In this document: piece after piece, positions 3,896 through 57,506 of the stretch
Layout: each line of letters opens with the position of its first letter
How positions within the stretch are numbered: the first letter of the stretch is position 1
Assembly (NCBI GenBank): GCA_963816365.1
Contig: CAWFKG010000017.1
Coordinates: 28,415-92,414 of the forward strand
Length of the DNA: 64,000 bases
Reading direction: 5' to 3'
Origin: an uncultured Bacteroidales bacterium
Lineage (GTDB): Bacteria > Bacteroidota > Bacteroidia > Bacteroidales > VadinHA17
The notes under the pieces: generated by a model
What the model was told of the DNA's origin: nothing
Database searches by the model: none
Seen by the model: the letters and a program-made list of their open reading frames with translations, nothing else
Translations under genes and position numbers: made by a program

Positions 3896-4232
3896 CTCAC
3901 CGCCGTCCCATAGACGTCAACTTAAGGAGTTGAATATAGTAGAATGTAAAATATTGGATATAAGCCTGATACATTTCCCCTCCTTTTGAAGGAGGGGTGG
4001 CCGGACCACTTTATAATTATGTTACAAATACTGATACCGGCCGGGGTGGTTGATTGTTTATTCAATTTCCTGATCTTTTCTTTTGAAGGTTTTTCTTATC
4101 TCATTTTTTACAAATTCAGGTTCCTGGAATACTAACGCTCAGCCCCCTTCAAAAGGGAGGGGAAACTTTTTTATGCAGTATCTCATTCATCCCCCAAAGC
4201 TTAAGTTGACGACTATGGGGATGGGGGTGAGT
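3896..4232. mobile_element. gene-less deletion derivative of the DUF559 hairpin cassette found at 56730-57506
   Basis: 3942-4131 is nearly identical to 56828-57018. The outer inverted repeat is CCATAGACGTCAACTTAAG / CTTAAGTTGACGACTATGG and the inner one is TTTCCCCTCCTTTTGAAGG / CCTTCAAAAGGGAGGGGAAA. Only about the last 25 codons of the DUF559 gene remain. Confidence 0.7.
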
Positions 4233-4347
4233 ATGTAATTGGCAAAAGAAATTCACAATCTACAAGATGTGTAAAAAGGTTATTACCAGCAGGAAGGGCA
4301 ATCAAATAATTTAATTAGCCTCTGTGTTACTCCTGTGTTGAAAAAAG

Positions 4348-5759: not shown

Positions 5760-6812
5760 TTATCTTTTACAGTCTGAATACCCTGCCTGAGCCATTCCGG
5801 CACGAAGGTTGTCATCACTAACACTAAGATGAATATATTTTGCGAATGATTTAATATCTCTGTAATTATTTATCAGAAAGGCATTTACTGAATGAGTGGC
5901 AGCATCGCTTACATTACCGACATTTGATATAACAGGAACACATCCGCAGGCCATGGCTTCAAGCATTGAAGTCGGAAGGCCCTCACTGCGTGAAGGCATA
6001 ACCAGAATTTTTGACCTTTGAAAATAGGATTCCGTATCATCTATGTGACCTGTAAAGACAACGTTTTCAGAAAGACCGAGCATCCTTGCCTGATCAATAC
6101 AGTATTTATAAAGATAGCCATCCCCTATAAAACAAGCCTTTAAAAGATGGGAAATCCTTTTTTAACAGAGTTAGCATCTGCAGTACTTTGTCGGGACCTT
6201 TAAGCTTGCGAAAGGTACCTACAAACAGAACATCAATATCTTTTAATGTGGATGAATTAAAATAAAACTTCGCCAGGTTTATGGCGCCGTTATAAACCAA
6301 TACTTTTGAAGATAAGAATGTTATGGTCAGTCAGATAGCTATTTACAATGCTCCCTTTTGTGGTTATCAGGTCGGTATTCCTTTAATGCCCATAAATTCA
6401 GCCGTTTCAGAAACCATCTGAAACGGCTGTATGTTTCAATTTCCACAATACCCCCAATAAGTGAAAGAATGCATTTTGAACCGGTTAACCTGGCAGCCAT
6501 CAGACTATTAATTCCTTTCGGTATCAGATGATAGCCGTTTATTATATCAGGTCGTATTTTATAGGCATGGTAAATCAGTTGAACAGGTTCCGCAATGAGT
6601 CTTACAAATCTGGACAGGAACCGTGGTTTTATATTCAATATCCAACCAGGCAGGGTAATGTATACTGTTTTTGGAAGCGGAAGTGCTTCCTTTTCCCTGA
6701 AAATGTAAATACGGCTTACTGAAGGATTAATTGTAAAAGGTTCAGCTTTTGAGTAAGTAAGAGATTTGCCCATCCTTCCGACAACCAGGAAACAGATTAA
6801 TTCTTTTTCCAC
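5760..6812 (-). CDS. glycosyltransferase family 4, two compensating frameshifts
   Basis: ORFs 6339..6812, 6106..6300 and 5760..6083. The C-terminal motif is SRSEGLPTSMLEAMACGCVPV (E-x7-E). Confidence 0.7.
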
Positions 6813-7925: not shown

Positions 7926-8045
7926 GACTTAGAGACTTAGAGACTCAGGGACTTAGAGATCGAAGTACTGAGCAATGTCCCTTTGTCCCTTAGTCTCTTA
8001 GTCTCTCAGTCTCTTAGTCTCTCAGTCTTCAGTCACTTAGTCTCC
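7926..8045. repeat. empty imperfect hairpin of the GACTTAG / CTTAGTCT 8-mer family
   Basis: The left arm at 7926-7959 and the right arm at 7986-8045 are complementary at about 29 of 34 aligned positions by eye. The loop is about 25 nt. The right arm ends on the stop codon of the 8045..9447 gene. Confidence 0.8.
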
Positions 8046-31123: not shown

Positions 31124-31670
31124 GGGCGCGAGGTATGCGGTTTGCGGTGTGCGGCAGAAGGTACGCAGAAGATTATTTGCTGTATGAGGTTTAATATAAA
31201 ATCATTATCTTTAGGCTCAGTGCTAATTTAAATTATTAATCTAAAACGCTGCATCATGGGAAATTTTCAAAAACTTCGTGTTTGGCAAATTGCCAAAGAA
31301 CTTGCCGTTCAAATTTACAAAATGACTCAAAATCTTCAGTTTAGAAAAGATCTGGGATTCAAAGATCAGATTCAAAGATCTGCAGTCAGTATTCCTTCTA
31401 ATATAGCTGAAGGAGATGAATCAGGTACTGATAAATTATCAGTCAGATATTTTTATATAGCTAAAGGATCTATAGCGGAACTTATGACACAATTAATAAT
31501 TGCCAACGAGATTGGTTATATTGATTCTGAAATTAAAAGTCAATTAGTTGATACCTGTGATAAATTATCTTCAATGTTGACTAGACTTATAAATGTAAGG
31601 CGTCAGATGAAATAAAATCGTCTATCCGAAAAACAAATACCGCATACCGCACGCCGCGTACCGCAAGCCC
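31124..31670. mobile_element. hairpin-bounded cassette a (four-helix-bundle cargo), arms (TGCGGTN)n / (ACCGCAN)n
   Basis: Left arm 31124-31169 and right arm 31637-31670 match at about 25 of 34 Watson-Crick positions by eye. Most of the remainder are G-T pairs. Confidence 0.65.
31256..31615 (+). CDS. four-helix-bundle protein (23S rRNA intervening-sequence protein family, PF05635/TIGR02436-like)
   Basis: Intact 119-aa ORF. KDQIQRSAVSIPSNIAEG and YIAKGSIAEL are the family hallmarks. Confidence 0.85.
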   Translation: MGNFQKLRVWQIAKELAVQIYKMTQNLQFRKDLGFKDQIQRSAVSIPSNIAEGDESGTDKLSVRYFYIAKGSIAELMTQLIIANEIGYIDSEIKSQLVDTCDKLSSMLTRLINVRRQMK

Positions 31671-36140: not shown

Positions 36141-36657
36141 GTGTTGCTGGTTGCTGGTTGCTGGTTACTTCTTACGATAATTAGCAATTAGCAACTAGCA
36201 ACTCGTAACTAGCAACTGGCTAAGTTTTCCAATCAGATTCTACATATTTGATGAAATTGTTAATCATTTTTCCTAAAGTGTCAAGATCCTTAAGAATTTC
36301 TACAAATTCTGAAATCTTTGGGTACAGTTCAATAACAGTAACTGCCTGATTAGTTGCTTCATCGCAGGAAGCTTGAGAATAAACTAAATAACGAATAAAC
36401 TCGGCTTTATACCTTCTTCTGCCGTATCCTTCGACAATATTATCCTTTACGCTTTTTGTCGATCTTCGGATTTGACTTCCTTGTTCATATAGTTCAAACT
36501 GAGGTAACTTAAGTGATGCCTTGTGTACCCTTATAGCTATAACATACGCCAGCTTATAAATTTCCAAATCTTTATAACTCTTCATAATTATTCCTTTCTA
36601 CTTTAGCACGAGCAACAAGCAACAAGCAACAAGCAACTAGAAACTAGAAACCAGAAC
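36141..36657. mobile_element. hairpin-bounded cassette b, arms (TTGCTGG)n / (AGCAACN)n with two alternative right-hand partners
   Basis: 36141-36167 can pair with 36178-36218 (local) or with 36605-36657 (across the gene). Confidence 0.65.
36220..36585 (-). CDS. four-helix-bundle protein (PF05635-like, second subfamily)
   Basis: Intact 121-aa ORF with GSQIRRSTKSVKDNIVEGYGRRRYKAEFIRYL. Confidence 0.8.
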   Translation of the reverse strand: MKSYKDLEIYKLAYVIAIRVHKASLKLPQFELYEQGSQIRRSTKSVKDNIVEGYGRRRYKAEFIRYLVYSQASCDEATNQAVTVIELYPKISEFVEILKDLDTLGKMINNFIKYVESDWKT

Positions 36658-40500: not shown

Positions 40501-42173
40501 ATGTCTGACCTGAGAAAAAAACTCTTCCTGTTTTGTATTGTAAGTATAATTGTACTGAATACAAATCTGCTTAGCCAGGAGGTTCCGCAATCAGTGAGCA
40601 ATACCGGGATCTACGAATTCCTTGATGAACTGGCAAACAACCATATAATATCAATCAATTCAGCTGTAAAACCTTACTCGCGGTTATTCATATCAAAGCG
40701 CCTTAAAGAGGCAGAAGAGAAAAAAGATCAGCTTAATGCCAGACAGCAGAAAGAGCTCGATTTCTATCTGATGGATTTCGGGAAAGAGATTAATAATGAA
40801 TGGCTTAATGGCGCAAAGGCACAAACCACCGCAAGGCCGGGGTATGGCTCAATGGCACAAAGGAACAACGAGAGAATGGCCCTCGGAAACGGATTGATCT
40901 GTTCTATTATCAGGATTCAGTTTTCTCTTTGACAATAAATCCTGTGCTCGGAGGAGAGATATTTGGCAACTCCTCAGGCATTGCATATTATGCACGCAAC
41001 GGCGCAGAAGCACGCGGATATATTCAGAAATGGGGATTCTATGCTTCACTTGGTGATAACCATGAGAAACCACTTCTTGGATTGCCTCAATATCTCACTC
41101 CCAGGGTTAACGGTCATATAAAAGGTACTTCTGACTGGAGCGAGATGAAAGGCGGGATTACTTATTCGTGGAAATGGGGAAATGCAGGACTGGTAAAAGA
41201 TAATCAGCAATGGGGAAACAATTACAACGGAGCAAATATATTCGGAGGAAATAATCCGACATTTGTCCAGTTAAGGCTTCATATCTCTCCGGTAAAATGG
41301 TTTGATTTCAATTATTTCCATGGCTGGCTAAATTCTATGGTCGTTGACAGTGCCCATTCCTTCTGGGTTACAAATAGTTATGGTACCAGTTACCGGAGGG
41401 TATATCATAAAAAGTTCATAGCTGCCAATATGTTCACATTCACCCCTTTTAAATATCTTAACATATCGGCGGGAAACAGTATTGTTTATGATAATGATAA
41501 TGCCAATCCGGCCTATCTGATACCACTTTTCTTTTACAAGTCGGTCGATCATTCCTTAACTTACGGCATTACCAACATGAACTCACAGATGTTTTTTGAC
41601 ATCAGCTCACGACAGATAAAAAACACTCATATTTATGCCACTTTGTTCGTTGATGAACTGTCAGTGAGCCGTTTCACTGAAAAAGATCAATGGAACTTCT
41701 TAAGCTACAAAGCCGGATTCAGATTAGATGATCTTCCATTTCCCAACCTTTCATTCACAACTGAGTTCACATATACTTATCCTTTGACATATCAACATAA
41801 TGTGCCTACTCTTACATTTGAGAATGCAGGATATAACCTGGGATATTATCTGAAGGATAACTCCAGGGAATGGTACGTTGCATTTGATTACCGTCCTTTC
41901 AGAACTCTGGATCTAAATCTCTGCTTTATTGATGCAATACGTGGTCCGGATTATACGGAACTTGGTGTATACCGAATTGGTAATCCGCCGTTGGTTTCAG
42001 TTCAATGGCATAATACATCATACGGAATTAAAGCTTCTTACCAGGTTATAAATGATCTTTATACCTGGTTCTCATTTACAGCAGGCAATATAACAGGCGA
42101 TGCAAGATGGAGTCCGGAATATTTTTTCGGAAAAAAGAATACTGTGAATCTGGGTGTTACTTTTGGGTTTTAA
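40501..42173 (+). CDS. capsule assembly Wzi-family outer-membrane protein, one frameshift at ~40887
   Basis: ORFs 40501..40932 and 40929..42173. The frame is restored by lengthening AAA at 40887-40889 (..RMALGKRIDLFYYQDSVFSLTINPVLGG..). The C-terminal region is beta-barrel-like. Confidence 0.65.
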
Positions 42174-42190
42174 TGGCCTCACTGCAGCTT

Positions 42191-42890
42191 TCTTTTCTTT
42201 GCCCCCCTGCCCGAGAAGTTAAATCTCTGTTTATCCTTTTGCCCCCCTGCCCCCCTAAAGGGGGGTTCGTACTCGTTATTTAAGTGAGTTTTGTATATTT
42301 GAAATATTGCTGCATTATTAATGAAAACAGTAATATCTAAAATTACTATGTATTATGGAGCGGATTCCGCGACATTAAGACACCCATATACTTAGAAGGA
42401 GTATGACTAAAGATGAAGGGGTACTATGGAAAAAGTTAAAGGACAGAAATGTATTTAGCAGTAAAATTTAGAAGACAACATCCTGTTTATAATTTCATTG
42501 TTGATTTTTATTGTCATGAATATAAGCTTGTCATAGAAGTTGATGGAGATATTCATAATGATGAAATTGCATACCAGTATGATTTGGGCAGAACTAAAGT
42601 GCTTAACAATTTTGGATTGAAAGTAATCCGATTTACAAATGATCAGATACTTTATAGTTTAGATTCTGTAATAGAGGAAATCCAAAGAGAAGTTGCGAAT
42701 CGAACTCCCCTTAGGGGGGCAGGGGGGCAAAAAAGAGATGAGCATAATAAAATTGGGCAGGGGGGCAAAAAAGAGATGAGTATAATAGAGTTGGGCAGGG
42801 GCAGAGATGAGCATAATAAAATTGGGCAGGAGGGCAAAAAGAGATGGCATTAGGATAATAATGCTGGGCAGGGACAAAAATAACAGAATG
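42191..42890. mobile_element. hairpin-bounded cassette with DUF559 cargo; arms are inverted arrays of a ~38-bp unit
   Basis: The left side has 2 units ending TTTTGCCCCCCTGCCCCCCTAAAGGGGGG (42191-42266). The right side has 5 units, GGGCAGGGGGGCAAAAAAGAGATGAGCATAATAAAATT and variants, starting at 42717, 42755, 42793, 42824 and 42866. Confidence 0.7.
42348..42853 (+). CDS. DUF559 (Vsr-like endonuclease fold) protein, 2 N-terminal frameshifts, C-terminus reads into the repeat arm
   Basis: ORF 42449..42853 (FRRQHPVYNFIVDFYCHEYKLVIEVDGDIH..LKVIRFTNDQI) parallels the intact copy at 56944..57327. Upstream frames give MYYGADSATLR.. and ..MTKDEGVLWKKLKDR. Confidence 0.65.
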
Positions 42891-43057
42891 ACAATTTAAA
42901 GCAAAATGTCTGATGGGTGCAGTCGGGGAAAAAACAAGGAGCATCTTCCGAATACATAATTGTCCGGATAGGAAGATGATAATTACTTTTTAACTGAACA
43001 ATCTTCCTAAATTTTTATTTACTTCGCTATCTCTAACCTGTTGTTTGCAGTTGACTG

Positions 43058-44605
43058 ATGGAAAAGCGTAAATTCAGGACAATAACACTCCTTGCAGATA
43101 TTGTCATTCTTACAGTATCCTTTCTTGCTATGGTATGGACCAAGCCTGCAAGCCTCAGGTTTTACCTGCCATCGCATACACCATTCTTCCTTGGTCTGGC
43201 AGTAATGTGGATCATAGTTTCCTTAATTAACGGGAAAATGCACCGTGGCAGGATCATCAACTTTTCATCACTCTTTACCAGGGTTCTTACAAGTAATATT
43301 ATTGCGGTTTCTATTACTGCCCTTGCAATGTACGCTATCAGAGAGATCCAATATTCAAGAACCATTGTCCTGGGAACAGCTTTGCTCGCCACATTTCTTG
43401 AACTGGTATTCGGCTCTGTCTATATGGCTTACAAAAAGGCAGTTGTACAGGATTTTGATGCTTATGATAAATTCAAGCCGGAAAGGAGGCCAAGTGAATA
43501 TGAGCTTGTAAAGAAAACAAACGGGAATGGACATCAAAAGATAGAACATACTGAGGTAAATCCCCGAATTGCCCTGGCGATCGAAAATGAGTGCGGATCG
43601 GAAATGGCTCTGGCAATCCTGAATATGACTTGTAGCAATTTTACCGATCACACTGCAGTGTTATCGACCACCACTATTTTTAATATTACTAGTCTGGTGA
43701 AAGAAAAGTATGATTATATAATCAATCTTCATAAGATCAATGACATAAAAAAACTCGACAGCTTTCTCGATGCCGTAAACACTAAGCTTGCAGAGAAAGG
43801 TTTTTTCTTCTGCTGTGTCGAGACCAAGGACCAGAGGAAACGCAGACTATTAAATAAGTATCCGTTCCTATTGAATTATATTTATTATTTTTTTGATTTT
43901 ATAATAAAACGGATCCTTCCGAAACTCAGTTTCACAAGGGGATTCTACCTCTTCCTTACACATGGCGATAATGCGGTCATCTCTCGTGCCGAAGCGCTGG
44001 GCCGACTCTCAAGGGCAGGATTCAGGATCAAGCAGGAGTCATTCATAGGAAACCTGTTGTGCATTGAAGCAAGAAAGATCAAAGATCCTTTTCCGATTAA
44101 TGGTAATGTTTATGGCCCATTGATTGCTTTATCAAGAGTGGGCAAGGACGGTAAGATGATTAAAGTATATAAGCTCAGGACCATGCATCCTTATTCTGAG
44201 TATATCCAGAAATATGTCTATGAGATACACAATCTTAAGAATGGTGGAAAGTTTAAAAATGATTTCCGTATAACCTCCTGGGGTGCCATCTGCAGAAGAA
44301 CCTTTTTAGATGAGCTGCCAATGCTCATGAACTTCTTTCGTGGAGATATGAAGATTGTTGGAGTGCGGCCTTTAAGCAAACATTATTTTGAATTATACAG
44401 TAAAGAGCTTCAGGAGCGGAGAATTAAATATAAACCCGGACTTATTCCGCCATTCTATGCAGATATGCCCTGCGATCTGGAGTCGATACAGGCTTCCGAA
44501 CTCAAATACCTTGATGCCTTCGACAAACACCCTGTCTATACTGATTTCCGTTATTTCTGGAAATCGAGCTGGAATATACTGTTCAGGAAGGCAAGAAGCA
44601 ACTAA
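43058..44605 (+). CDS. polyprenyl-phosphate glycosylphosphotransferase (WbaP-like bacterial sugar transferase)
   Basis: Intact 515-aa ORF. The N-terminus has TM helices. The C-terminal domain reads VGKDGKMIKVYKLRTM..DELPMLMNFFRGDMKIVGVRP. Confidence 0.8.
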   Translation: MEKRKFRTITLLADIVILTVSFLAMVWTKPASLRFYLPSHTPFFLGLAVMWIIVSLINGKMHRGRIINFSSLFTRVLTSNIIAVSITALAMYAIREIQYSRTIVLGTALLATFLELVFGSVYMAYKKAVVQDFDAYDKFKPERRPSEYELVKKTNGNGHQKIEHTEVNPRIALAIENECGSEMALAILNMTCSNFTDHTAVLSTTTIFNITSLVKEKYDYIINLHKINDIKKLDSFLDAVNTKLAEKGFFFCCVETKDQRKRRLLNKYPFLLNYIYYFFDFIIKRILPKLSFTRGFYLFLTHGDNAVISRAEALGRLSRAGFRIKQESFIGNLLCIEARKIKDPFPINGNVYGPLIALSRVGKDGKMIKVYKLRTMHPYSEYIQKYVYEIHNLKNGGKFKNDFRITSWGAICRRTFLDELPMLMNFFRGDMKIVGVRPLSKHYFELYSKELQERRIKYKPGLIPPFYADMPCDLESIQASELKYLDAFDKHPVYTDFRYFWKSSWNILFRKARSN

Positions 44606-44608
44606 CGC

Positions 44609-44920
44609 TTACAGACTTAACGGCGCAAAGGCGCAACGGCGCAAAGGCGTGAAGAAATATCCAATTTCCTCCGCAATGATAAGTTGTGTTAACAACTCTG
44701 CACTTGAACCTTTTGCAATATAAAAATGACGGATAGATTGTTTATCTGTTTCAAGTTCATCACCTTCAGCAATATTTGAAGGTACGCTAACGGCAGATCT
44801 CTGAATCTGATCTTTCAATCCAAAGTCTTTTGAAAATGACAGCGTTTGAGTTAGTTTATAAATTCTCACAGCTAATTCCTTAGCCAGTTGCCACACACGA
44901 AGCTCTTGAAAATTTCCCAT
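44609..44920 (-). pseudogene. 3'-truncated four-helix-bundle gene; the last 16 codons are read from the repeat arm
   Basis: The first 88 aa are about 80% identical (70 of 88 by hand count) to the protein of 31256..31615. Helix 4 is missing and is replaced by FFTPLRRCAFAPLSL, encoded by the (GGCGCAAA)n arm. Confidence 0.75.
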
Positions 44921-45098
44921 AATACAGCGATATTAGATTTATAAATAAAAGTTAGCACGTAGGATAAAGATATAACTTTTCTCTGAGATTAACTGGATGT
45001 TAGTTGTTTCCTAAAATTGCATATCGTAATCCCAATAATTATTAATAAACTTTCTCAGCAAGGCCGTTGCGCCGTTGTGCCGTTGTGCCGTTGTGCCA
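44617..45098. mobile_element. hairpin-bounded cassette c, arms (GGCGCAAN)n / (GCCGTTGN)n 8-mers
   Basis: 44617-44650 TTAACGGCGCAAAGGCGCAACGGCGCAAAGGCGT against 45062-45098 GGCCGTTGCGCCGTTGTGCCGTTGTGCCGTTGTGCCA. Confidence 0.7.
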
Positions 45099-46730: not shown

Positions 46731-46855
46731 TTTATTATCAGAATTAAATTAATGGGTGTAAAGTTAGAGAAAATTAGTAAAAGGACACACGACACACGAC
46801 TCACGACACACGACTCAAATACGAAGAATTGTTTTGACTTTTTAAAAATGATCTT

Positions 46856-46901: not shown

Positions 46902-47261
46902 ATGAGCAATTATGAAAATTTGAAGGTTTGGCATAGAGCCGTTGAACTTGCAGTTTCAATCTATAAGTTAACAGGAACGAACAAATCATTTGTTAAAGAT
47001 TTTGGATTAAAAGATCAAATACAGAGATCATCTGTGAGTATTTCCAGTAATATTTCCGAAGGTGATGAACTCGGAACTGATAAGCAAGCTATCAGGCAAT
47101 TCTTTATCGCAAAAGGATCGGCAGCAGAACTTTATACTCAGCTTACTATTTCCTCTAAAATAGGATACCTGAATGAGGAAGAAGCCAAGTATTATTTGAA
47201 TGAATGCAAAGGCATTTCATCCATGCTGACTAATCTCATTAAATCGAGATCATCAGAATAA
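46902..47261 (+). CDS. four-helix-bundle protein (PF05635-like)
   Basis: Intact 119-aa ORF with KDQIQRSSVSISSNISEG and FIAKGSAAEL. Confidence 0.85.
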   Translation: MSNYENLKVWHRAVELAVSIYKLTGTNKSFVKDFGLKDQIQRSSVSISSNISEGDELGTDKQAIRQFFIAKGSAAELYTQLTISSKIGYLNEEEAKYYLNECKGISSMLTNLIKSRSSE

Positions 47262-49315: not shown

Positions 49316-49571
49316 GACTCAGAGACTCTAGGGACTAAGGGACTGAGGGACTGCACACCTAAATAGTCTAGGATTGAGTGACATATCGACAGTCTTCCAT
49401 TATTTTCTCATACAGATCCATCAGGGAAAGCTCTTCGTCATTATTGCAACTTAAGAGAATCAGAGGTTTTGTAGGGAAGATATACTAAAGAGTAGTCTAA
49501 CCAGTATGCTTCATTACAGACTCTTCGTCTCTAGTCCCTATAGTCCCTAAGTCTCTTAGTCTCTTAGTCTG
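49316..49571. mobile_element. decayed cassette: arms of the GACTAAG / CTTAGTCT family around a ~40-codon remnant of a four-helix-bundle gene
   Basis: Arms at 49316-49352 and 49518-49571. The minus-strand remnant 49368-49457 reads ..LLSCNNDEELSLMDLYEKIMEDCRYVTQS*, which resembles the C-terminus LSCDYMTEQEHFDLNETYDKILGKL of 54156..54527. Confidence 0.6.
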
Positions 49572-49642
49572 TTAATTATTCGGGATTTTACTATCTTTGT
49601 CCGAATTTTTTATAATAACAAGTTTTATTAATCGCAGATCCA

Positions 49643-53158: not shown

Positions 53159-54098
<940 letters not shown>

Positions 54099-54101
<3 letters not shown>

Positions 54102-54710
54102 CTGACGGACTTAGTGACTAAGGGACTTAGTGACTAAGGGACTCAGAGACGAGGGTTACCAACTCCAATTCTCTGGATGGAGGGACATGTTGACAAGCTT
54201 TCCTAATATTTTGTCATAGGTTTCATTAAGGTCAAAATGTTCTTGTTCGGTCATATAGTCACAACTTAACGAGAAATCCAACCAGGTTTGAGTTTCTGCT
54301 GCTTCGCCCTCCGAATCCGTGAGTTTTGCAATAAATGATTTTGGATATCTTCTTTTTCTGAAGGCTTCTGCTAGATTTGAGCATACTGACCTGGAAGATC
54401 TTCTTATTTGATCTGTTAAAGAATAAATCTCTTCTTTGGGAAATCTCTTGGTTAGTTCAAAAATCTTCATTGCTACATCGAACAAAAGACAATACACGTC
54501 TAATTCCTTGTGAGATCTGATTTTCATTTTTCAGCGATTTAAGTAAGACAATTATTATTCCAATCTAAAATTAGAACAAATACTTGAATCCTATTCATAA
54601 TTTGTTTTATATTCTCATCATCCCTATAGTCTCTTAGTCTCTTAGTCTCTTAGTCTCTTAGTCTCCTTAGTCTCTTAGTCTCTTAGTCTCTTAGTCTCTT
54701 AGTCTCTCTT
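54099..54710. mobile_element. hairpin-bounded cassette e, arms GACTTAGTGACTAAGG.. / (CTTAGTCT)n
   Basis: The left arm 54099-54155 begins with the uxs TGA. The right arm 54621-54710 is about 10-11 tandem 8-mers. Confidence 0.7.
54156..54527 (-). CDS. four-helix-bundle protein (PF05635-like, second subfamily)
   Basis: Intact 123-aa ORF with TDQIRRSSRSVCSNLAEAFRKRRYPKSFIAKL. Confidence 0.8.
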   Translation of the reverse strand: MKIRSHKELDVYCLLFDVAMKIFELTKRFPKEEIYSLTDQIRRSSRSVCSNLAEAFRKRRYPKSFIAKLTDSEGEAAETQTWLDFSLSCDYMTEQEHFDLNETYDKILGKLVNMSLHPENWSW

Positions 54711-56729: not shown

Positions 56730-57506
56730 TCACCCCCTTCATCCTCCATAGAGAGTGGCGGGGAGGCAAAACCGTCAACTTAAGAAGTTGAATATAGTAA
56801 AATATGGAGAGAGTTTAGTACAAAACAGAATGTAAAATATTGGATATAAGCCTGATACATTTCCCCTCCTTTTGAAGGAGGGGTGGCCGGACCACTTTAT
56901 AATTATGATACAAATACTGATACCGGCCGGGGTGGTTGATTGTTTATTCAAATTCCGGATCTTTCATTTTGAAGATTTTTCTTATCTCATTTTTTACGAA
57001 TTCAGGTTCCTGGAATACCAGCCTGTTTTCAAACCTTAGTACTGAGAATCCAAGGCCTTCAAGATATTGATCTCTTTTTTTATCTTTTTCTATTTTATGA
57101 TATTCACCATGCGGATTTCCATCAAGCTCAATTACCAGTTTTTCTGAAGTACAACAAAAGTCAACTATGTAATTACCTATACTATGTTGTCTTCTGAATT
57201 TTCTTTCATTAAGCTTTTTTGATTTTAAAATGTTCCATAACTCAGCCTCAGCAGAAGTGGACTTGTTCCTAAGAGATGATCTAAAAAACTTAAGGCTTTT
57301 TTTGTTAAAGAGGATTTTGTTTTTCATGCCAATAAAGGTAAGAAAGAAATCAATGAATCAACCACCCCGATCGGGAAATAAAACACTGTATATATCAGAT
57401 AATCAATCGTCCCGACCACCCCTCCTTCAAAAGGAGGGGAAACTTTTTTATGCAATATCTCGTTCATCAATAGAGATTAAGTAGACGGCATGGGGTGGGG
57501 AGGTGA
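56730..57506. mobile_element. hairpin-bounded cassette with intact DUF559 cargo and three nested inverted repeats
   Basis: The outer pair is 56730-56786 / 57467-57506. The middle pair is 56858-56896 / 57409-57444, and each member contains its own CCCCTCC..GGAGGGG hairpin. The inner pair is 56919-56941 / 57354-57376. Confidence 0.75.
56944..57327 (-). CDS. DUF559 (Vsr-like endonuclease fold) protein
   Basis: Intact 127-aa ORF with AEAELWNILKSKKLNERKFRRQHSIGNYIVDFCCTSEKLVIELDGNPH..LRFEN. Confidence 0.8.
   Translation of the reverse strand: MKNKILFNKKSLKFFRSSLRNKSTSAEAELWNILKSKKLNERKFRRQHSIGNYIVDFCCTSEKLVIELDGNPHGEYHKIEKDKKRDQYLEGLGFSVLRFENRLVFQEPEFVKNEIRKIFKMKDPEFE

Follow-up and report, generated by a model that had tools for sequence, protein, structure and literature searches.

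Among described systems, those made of repetitive extragenic palindromic (REP) doublets forming hairpins (REPINs) and REP-associated tyrosine transposases (RAYTs) consist of short palindromic units in intergenic DNA, with inverted doublets of ~100 bp as the non-autonomous unit and a gene flanked by its cognate repeats; their ends are conserved and their spacers drift, no target-site duplication is seen, and they persist vertically over long periods. MITEs (miniature inverted-repeat transposable elements) and their parent insertion sequences (IS), such as Correia/NEMIS and Nezha, are small, are present in many copies, bear terminal inverted repeats and are related by internal deletion with the termini kept. 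Here we describe a locus whose element family is like both. It lies at 42190-42890 of a 64,000-nucleotide stretch of DNA (hereafter the window) from an uncultured Bacteroidales bacterium (GenBank assembly GCA_963816365.1, contig CAWFKG010000017.1, positions 28,415 to 92,414), between a porin-like gene and a sugar transferase gene, and it holds a gene of the DUF559 family bracketed by inverted arms. We establish its anatomy, its membership in a dispersed repeat family, the gain and loss of the unit and its two orientations at one slot, the existence of deletion derivatives, and the specificity of the arms. In our judgement, the locus is probably a dead copy belonging to a family of selfish elements, each formed of a nuclease and its cognate repeats, that resembles MITEs or REPINs.

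Family A, as we label the element type at 42235-42733, differs from REPIN/RAYT in that its protein is a predicted Vsr-fold PD-(D/E)xK enzyme and not a Y1/HUH one, its repeats have no GTAG or CGTC head, its mini-elements keep remnants of the gene leader and of the 3' coding end, and its gene occurs in multiple copies that differ in position and have often decayed. It departs from the MITE/parent-IS arrangement in lacking a recognisable transposase and any detected target-site duplication, and in having ends with a palindrome inside them and, in many cases, direct arrays of end fragments after them. Free-standing homing endonuclease genes of the T4 seg/mob type similarly occupy intergenic slots between conserved genes, show presence/absence polymorphism and recur at the same slot, but the classical ones are without terminal inverted repeats or multi-locus miniature derivatives. 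The named comparator for family A in this group is the Vsr-fold homing endonuclease I-Bth0305I, and a survey of PD-(D/E)xK enzymes grouped DUF559 with Vsr and a group I intron homing endonuclease (PMC3424549). The 23S rRNA intervening sequences also carry a small open reading frame (ORF) between inverted ends that in a transcript would pair into a long stem; family A, however, resides between protein-coding genes and its cargo is a nuclease, not a four-helix-bundle protein. By analogy, family A appears closest in its working to REPIN/RAYT and MITE/parent-IS, with a population behaviour like that of homing genes. DUF559 itself is a very large family whose function is not established, and annotation pipelines name its genes and miss the structure around them. 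A literature search returned no DUF559 paper describing a cassette or mobile element, searches on REPIN/RAYT yielded nothing tying PD-(D/E)xK nucleases to such repeats, and PADLOC and PHROGs gave weak matches to nuclease domains only.

The right side of the locus holds a period-38 array (42717-42850; 3.8 copies, 79% matches) whose score of 173 in Tandem Repeats Finder is the highest among the arrays in the window. Repeat finding recovered the five direct copies listed by the original prediction, a reading of this DNA from its letters and ORFs; these start at 42717, 42755, 42793, 42824 and 42866 (spacings of 38, 38, 31 and 42 nt) and degenerate progressively rightward. The 16-nt core, GGGCAGGGGGGCAAAA, has 5 matches with at most 1 mismatch in the 64 kb, all at this locus, three of them on the + strand on the right side and two on the - strand on the left; a sixth, with 3 mismatches, lies at 56756, and six matches were reached in 0 of 100 shuffles. 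Eight inverted pairs connect the left side (42190-42262) with the right, the best being 42237-42262 with 42707-42732 (26 nt, 96% complementarity), and in blastn an alignment at 77% over 82 nt (E 3.7e-9) joined 42191-42269 to 42701-42776 taken as reverse complement, so that the inverted relationship proposed for the two sides survived formal alignment. The mini-hairpins reported at both inner ends are there as well, CCCCCC-TAAA-GGGGGG at 42250-42265 and CCCC-TTA-GGGGGG at 42707-42719, and are the sole C4+/short-loop/G4+ hairpins in the window. The features of the locus are as follows:

42190..42212, - strand: additional, partial outer-end unit of the left side (TTCTTTTCTTTGCCCCCCTGCCC), repeating the array core in inverted form and without hairpin
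42235..42269, + strand: left terminal inverted repeat, CCTTTTG-C6-TG-C6-TAAA-G6-TTCG, with its hairpin at 42250-42265
42270..42320, + strand: 5' subterminal leader common to full-length elements and mini-elements, from alignments
42321..42714, + strand: DUF559 pseudogene in three frame segments, from tblastn in three frames and PF04480
42701..42733, + strand: right terminal inverted repeat, CGAA-CT-C4-TTA-G6-CA-G6-CAAAAAA, with its hairpin at 42707-42719
42715..42853, + strand: spurious stretch (..RGAGGQKRDEHNKIGQGG..) added to the C-terminus where the ORF enters the array, judged against the protein ends of relatives
42717..42890, + strand: direct array of five ~38-nt units, each an outer-end fragment with GGGCAGGGGGGCAAAA plus ~20 nt
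42891..42975, no strand: non-conserved spacer from the last decayed unit to the promoter-proximal DNA of the sugar transferase, of uncertain membership in the element

The conserved promoter-proximal DNA of the sugar transferase gene begins at ATGATAATTAC (42976). The functional-looking end is the ~35-nt terminal repeat including its hairpin, and each 38-bp unit repeats a fragment from its outermost part, with ~20 nt added; the idea that the arms are built from a ~38-bp unit thus had to be given up. A hidden Markov model (HMM) made from the mini-elements of other genomes, described below, matched the left end (E 4.8e-14) and the right end (- strand, E 1.8e-7), finding both in the correct orientation. 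Folded singly as DNA, the ends were no more stable than shuffles (z -1.3 to 0), which leaves the mini-hairpins unsupported by energy alone, but when the entire element was folded as a single strand its ends paired in a long stem (z -7.1, 0 of 100 shuffles). An Rfam search of 41900-43200 at E values up to 1 gave no match, and a scan of the locus for terminator and promoter consensus sequences gave no terminator-like site and promoter-like sites at chance level. The leader contains the motif TAtaTTTG (42294-42301), whose resemblance to the Bacteroidetes -7 promoter consensus leads us to take it as a putative promoter.

The sole ORF in the element is that of DUF559. ORF 42449-42853 matches PF04480 (DUF559) with 87.8 bits against a cut-off of 20.6 (E 5.4e-25), the match covering profile positions 32-108 only, and an intact relative matches PDB entry 3HRL at E 1e-17. 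The invariant D62, E73, D75 and H79 are kept in the window copy as VDF...EVDGDIH (the translation reads FIVDFYCHEYKLVIEVDGDIH), and on the strength of the profile match and of these D/E/D/H positions we assign the gene family to the Vsr-fold PD-(D/E)xK nucleases. Alignment with intact relatives by tblastn runs through three frames (42321-42380, 42388-42465 and 42461-42712), with in-frame stops between the segments. The proteins of relatives end in ..ELTPL* or ..FTPP*, with the stop codon inside the 3' hairpin loop. The C-run of this hairpin is one base shorter in the window than in relatives, and as a consequence the natural TAG (42712-42714) is out of frame and the ORF continues into the array. 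The two frameshifts and the displaced stop make the window DUF559 a pseudogene and the copy a fossil, devoid of the intact reading frame of a functional member. The original prediction was thus right that the DUF559 frame, as ORF 42449-42853, runs into the array, but by comparison with relatives this extension is an artefact of decay and not ancestral protein. As a practical warning, ORFs reaching into such arrays would be artefacts of decayed copies.

The arms had been taken as private to this cassette, a view that did not hold once the core GCCCCCCTGCCCCCCTAA was scanned for in one genome per species. It occurs in at least 118 stretches, mostly as a gene-less repeat family, nearly all of them from Bacteroidales metagenome-assembled genomes (MAGs) and more than 20 in a single MAG; the counts and proportions of family-A ends that follow are among the matches listed, which also include a few stretches from Marithrix and cyanobacterial MAGs. 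The 131 oriented ends gave the consensus TTTTG-C6-TG-C6-TAAA-G6-TTAATTCTC (24-nt motif), with conservation falling off sharply ~5 nt beyond the first C-run on its outer side. Complete mini-elements of 76-175 bp account for about half of the ends, their second end reading C6-TTTA-G6-(CA or TT)-G6, and most of the other ends belong to the same elements with slightly degenerate partner ends. DUF559 sequence adjoins fewer than 10% of the ends, and more than 90% are without the gene. Paralogous copies within one genome have unrelated flanks and sharp boundaries, and orthologous copies in different species keep their ends and drift in their interior. Family A thus has the inverted termini, sharp boundaries, many copies and unrelated flanks of a MITE-type family, and, as in REPIN/RAYT, its palindromic units are paired as inverted doublets scattered through intergenic DNA and also flank the associated gene. 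In 13 complete mini-elements, no direct repeat of 2-8 nt rose above the permutation null as a target-site duplication, and the arm core had only 3 matches in viral contigs, giving no sign of a phage vehicle. A GC-rich hairpin is often inserted between the right-end G-runs (..GGGGGA-CAGCCGCGCAGCGGCA-GGGGG; for example L007 and L034), and it varies in sequence and length between orthologous copies (L045 vs L087).

A full-length family-A member comprises a promoter-like leader, one DUF559 gene of 127-131 aa, and terminal inverted repeats of ~35 nt (TTTTG-C6-TG-C6-TAAA-G6-TTAAT), each with a palindromic mini-hairpin; it measures ~0.5 kb between its ends and ~0.7-0.8 kb with its arrays. The interiors of the mini-elements align both to the 5' leader of full-length elements, the window copy included (TTAATACTC.GT.TTTAAGG..), and to the final ~30 nt of coding sequence (AATCC..GGAA.A.CACCGAATTAA-C6). 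Intermediate truncations were found in L049, L055 and L072, and no coding content other than DUF559 or its fragments was found between family-A ends. Because they share both subterminal regions with the full-length DUF559 elements, the mini-elements are internal-deletion derivatives, as MITEs are of a longer coding element, and judged from these alignments the gene-bearing form would stand to them as the autonomous element. The window also holds another DUF559 element type, intact at 56.8-57.5 kb (56.77-57.50 kb), to whose sequence the arms of the present locus are unrelated, as had been stated. A deleted copy of it at 3915-4235 (3.9-4.2 kb) is 96% identical over 192 nt and has both CCCCTCCTT..AAGGAGGGG arms, with only the last ~25 codons kept.

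The sugar transferase has many orthologues in uncultured Bacteroidales and Bacteroidia, and the slot that separates its gene from the porin-like gene was compared across seven related contigs. This revealed that (i) the slot is free of family-A sequence in L001 (host protein 93% identical; slot of 164 bp) and L123 (84%; 102 bp), (ii) it holds a solo remnant of another end type in L124 and L125 (83%) and 466 bp of other sequence in L122 (84%), (iii) it contains a family-A DUF559 on the opposite strand in L002 (90%), and (iv) it contains an intact DUF559 of 127 aa on the same strand as in the window in L126 (83%), whose ends read C6-AA-C6-TGAA-G6 (twice) and C6-TTTA-G6-TT-G6, with two 30-nt units coming after. 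One slot upstream in L001 there is a family-A element with the same ends and with a 5' array homologous to that of L002, which indicates that the arrays travel with the element. The DUF559 proteins of L001 and L002 share 88.5% identity. The window copy shares only 59-64% with these two and with that of L126, and the host proteins of the three contigs are 83-93% identical to those of the window; given this divergence, the occupants of the slot do not represent one vertically inherited insertion. The nuclease gene is thus polymorphic for presence and absence in an intergenic slot among relatives, and the picture of a discrete DUF559 unit, bracketed by inverted arms and gained and lost between conserved genes, is upheld. 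The variable intergenic blocks in L001 (~955), L002 (~2505), L123 (~1665) and the window (~42976) abut conserved promoter-proximal DNA at a shared junction (upstream of the porin-like gene, ..at|attctatttaattatata; upstream of the sugar transferase, |atgataattac), and it looks as if whole intergenic blocks are exchanged. The upstream porin-like gene is split in the window into ORFs 40501-40932 and 40929-42173, the frame shifting near 40810-40863, where the sequence is repetitive and rich in indels; in relatives a single ORF of 550-606 aa is present.

The survey of DUF559 flanks for G/C-tract hairpins that the original prediction had called for was made on 80 DUF559 relatives (42-65% identical) from metagenomes, of which 68 had 120 nt or more of flank on each side and were scored. 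A C4+/short-loop/G4+ hairpin occurred within 220 nt on the 5' side in 46/68, on the 3' side in 40/68, and on both in 35/68. The form with C-run, linker, C-run, loop and G-run was present 5' in 34/68, and the complementary form 3' in 31/68. Control windows elsewhere in the same loci scored 11/488, a contrast that is overstated as these are mostly coding DNA. The same architecture with a different arm sequence does recur around other DUF559 genes, as anticipated, and the arms vary by DUF559 subclade (linkers of TG, AA, AAA or TAAAT; runs of 4-6). Two or more double-run units were present on at least one side of 19/61 DUF559 genes, in contrast to 9/121 of the family-A ends listed, and multi-unit arms thus accompany gene-bearing copies. 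Four-helix-bundle (23S_rRNA_IVP) genes, both those of the window and those of relatives, lie between inverted 7-8-mer arrays and not G/C-run hairpins, and GIY-YIG genes carry yet other repeats. As each small-gene family has its own arm type, we argue that the arms are cognate to the gene. The cassettes of the four-helix-bundle genes had been cited as mirroring the DUF559 architecture; with their inverted 7-8-mer arrays, they differ in detail.

On the reading that we favor, a nuclease with its cognate repeats, the DUF559 protein would drive mobility. It would recognise and cut the structured ends, or the junction of gene-less copies, after which host recombination and repair would move the unit or make a copy of it. 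Where cutting and repair recur beside a gene-bearing copy, the direct arrays of outer-end fragments would be left behind, either as repair stutter or as footprints, and the array at 42717-42890 may have arisen by such repair. Several points weigh against this reading. The role of DUF559 in cutting or moving the ends is a proposed one, and a single-domain nuclease of ~130 aa is incapable of strand transfer and would not of itself account for dispersal to new sites. Many mini-elements are old and stand at orthologous sites across species, so the family may be largely static or host-maintained. No target-site duplication was seen, although the sample is small (13 elements), and some DUF559 genes are flanked by whole mini-elements and do not lie inside one (L158-L160). 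The mostly coding control windows inflate the hairpin contrast (46/68 vs 11/488). Homopolymer errors could also partly affect the pseudogene call if the assembly is from long reads only; the 2-nt deletion, however, is in diverged, non-homopolymer sequence, and neither it nor the divergence around it is a change of homopolymer type.

The main rival account, which we hold to be rather unlikely, is that the ends are a REP- or MITE-like family spread by an unlinked enzyme or by general recombination, with DUF559 not mobilising them but being a passenger or a homing-type nuclease gene with a preference for landing in such repeats. It draws on the large majority of listed ends (>90%) that are without the gene, on the persistence of mini-elements at orthologous sites across species, on the DUF559 genes that lie between complete mini-elements, and on the lack of a target-site duplication, which fits a non-DDE or recombination route. 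It does not sit well with mini-elements that hold a DUF559-specific leader and 3' coding sequence in graded truncations, with the fact that no other cargo was seen within family-A ends, with the separate arm sequence of each DUF559 subclade and the other arm types of the other small-gene families, or with a hairpin that itself encodes the stop codon and the C-terminal TPL/TPP. We consider it improbable that the hairpin repeats serve the host as regulatory or structural signals (terminators, RNA-processing or stability elements, nucleoid sites), with DUF559 being a nuclease of host repair or defence that stands between them by chance. Neither a terminator-like site nor an Rfam family was found at the locus, the closest relative (L001) has the whole unit elsewhere in its genome and not in this slot, the gene is decayed in the window, and paralogous copies with unrelated flanks and sharp boundaries indicate a transposition-like spread; these observations outweigh, in our opinion, the conservation of orthologous ends around a drifting interior, which suggests selection on the ends, the long end-to-end stem, which would make a plausible RNase III substrate in a read-through transcript, and the weak PADLOC matches to restriction-type nucleases.

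The presence of both gene orientations in the slot (window and L126 vs L002) raises the question of an invertible switch, in which the inverted arms would drive programmed inversion of the DUF559 segment, and 'DUF559 domain-containing protein' has been found 14-fold enriched among predicted targets of programmed inversion (PMC9881135). However, a screen based on inverted repeats is expected to enrich any gene that terminal inverted repeats overlap, there is no adjacent invertase, DUF559 copies of opposite orientation share only ~59% identity, and the 5'-side array moves with the gene in L001 and L002, which is no simple flip; we regard such a switch as very improbable. Simple inversion between the arms was likewise rejected as the origin of the L002 orientation, since the 5' array stays with the gene. 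An integron-type gene cassette with attC-like hairpins would have in common with the locus a small, promoter-poor ORF and a structured 3' site, and the window does contain several unrelated small cassettes, but the ends are symmetric on both sides and also exist as gene-less doublets, the cassettes stand singly, scattered between housekeeping genes and not arrayed, and no integrase was present in the ORFs examined, so that this identity is scarcely credible. Three further candidates were discarded: a CRISPR-like array, since the units share their spacer sequence and no cas genes were seen; an IS200/IS605 element, since terminal inverted repeats are present and neither TnpA nor TnpB is; and terminators of the flanking genes, since in L001 the ends go along with the gene to a different slot.

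If the gene-bearing elements and their miniature derivatives do form one selfish unit, DUF559 would gain a testable function, a major class of intergenic repeats of environmental Bacteroidales would be explained, and orphan repeats such as BoxC would acquire a concrete partner candidate. A wider proposal, which we can put forward only tentatively and think possible rather than likely, is that DUF559 proteins are dedicated partners of a cross-phylum class of structured, palindromic G/C-run repeats, whose ends they would cut and whose units repair would copy. Such a class would span Bacteroidota, Beggiatoaceae, cyanobacteria and possibly the BoxC repeat by ycjD in E. coli, and would constitute, by analogy, a second nuclease-repeat partnership like that of RAYT and REPIN, with PD-(D/E)xK chemistry. 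In E. coli K-12 (L210; NC_000913.3 1351030-1351840), the stop codon of ycjD, a DUF559 gene, is part of a C-rich/G-rich palindrome. From the 3' end of the gene, 23 nt recur as a direct duplicate ~100 nt downstream, followed by a 66-nt repeat. In E. coli, the median number of places with this repeat is 16 per genome, and a 25-nt inverted match (80%) links it to the 3' end of ycjD. It is BoxC-like, and we take it as a putative BoxC from the fabI/envM region, not by curated annotation. BoxC has been described as a 56-bp repeat with 32 copies (PMC2267715). The ycjD case differs from family A in sequence and phylum, and is a single example.

Outside Bacteroidota, a Marithrix MAG (L020, 4779-5400) has the family-A end motif immediately upstream of a DUF559 gene and more copies downstream, and the same end motif was found in two cyanobacterial MAGs (L017 and L035). 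Family-A mini-elements also stand immediately behind a tRNA-like 3' end and ahead of a sequence like the start of 23S rRNA in L096 (~1790-1880) and L113 (~6290-6380), at an orthologous position in two species.

As to the other small genes, those for four-helix-bundle proteins in the window are located at 31256-31615, 46902-47261, 54156-54527 (-) and 44654-44920 (-), with arrays such as TAGTCTCT x10; examples are the arrays at 54095-54143 / 54627-54707, 46784-46817, and 44619-44649 / 45063-45097. GIY-YIG genes of 109 aa occupy the same kind of intergenic slots in relatives (L003, 3037-3366 and 5563-5892; L082, 161-490), and their 3' tandem units overlap the C-terminus (..GLRRPPASGSQ*). Gene-less inverted arrays are also present in the window, at 7926-8044, 36143-36651 and 49316-49574.

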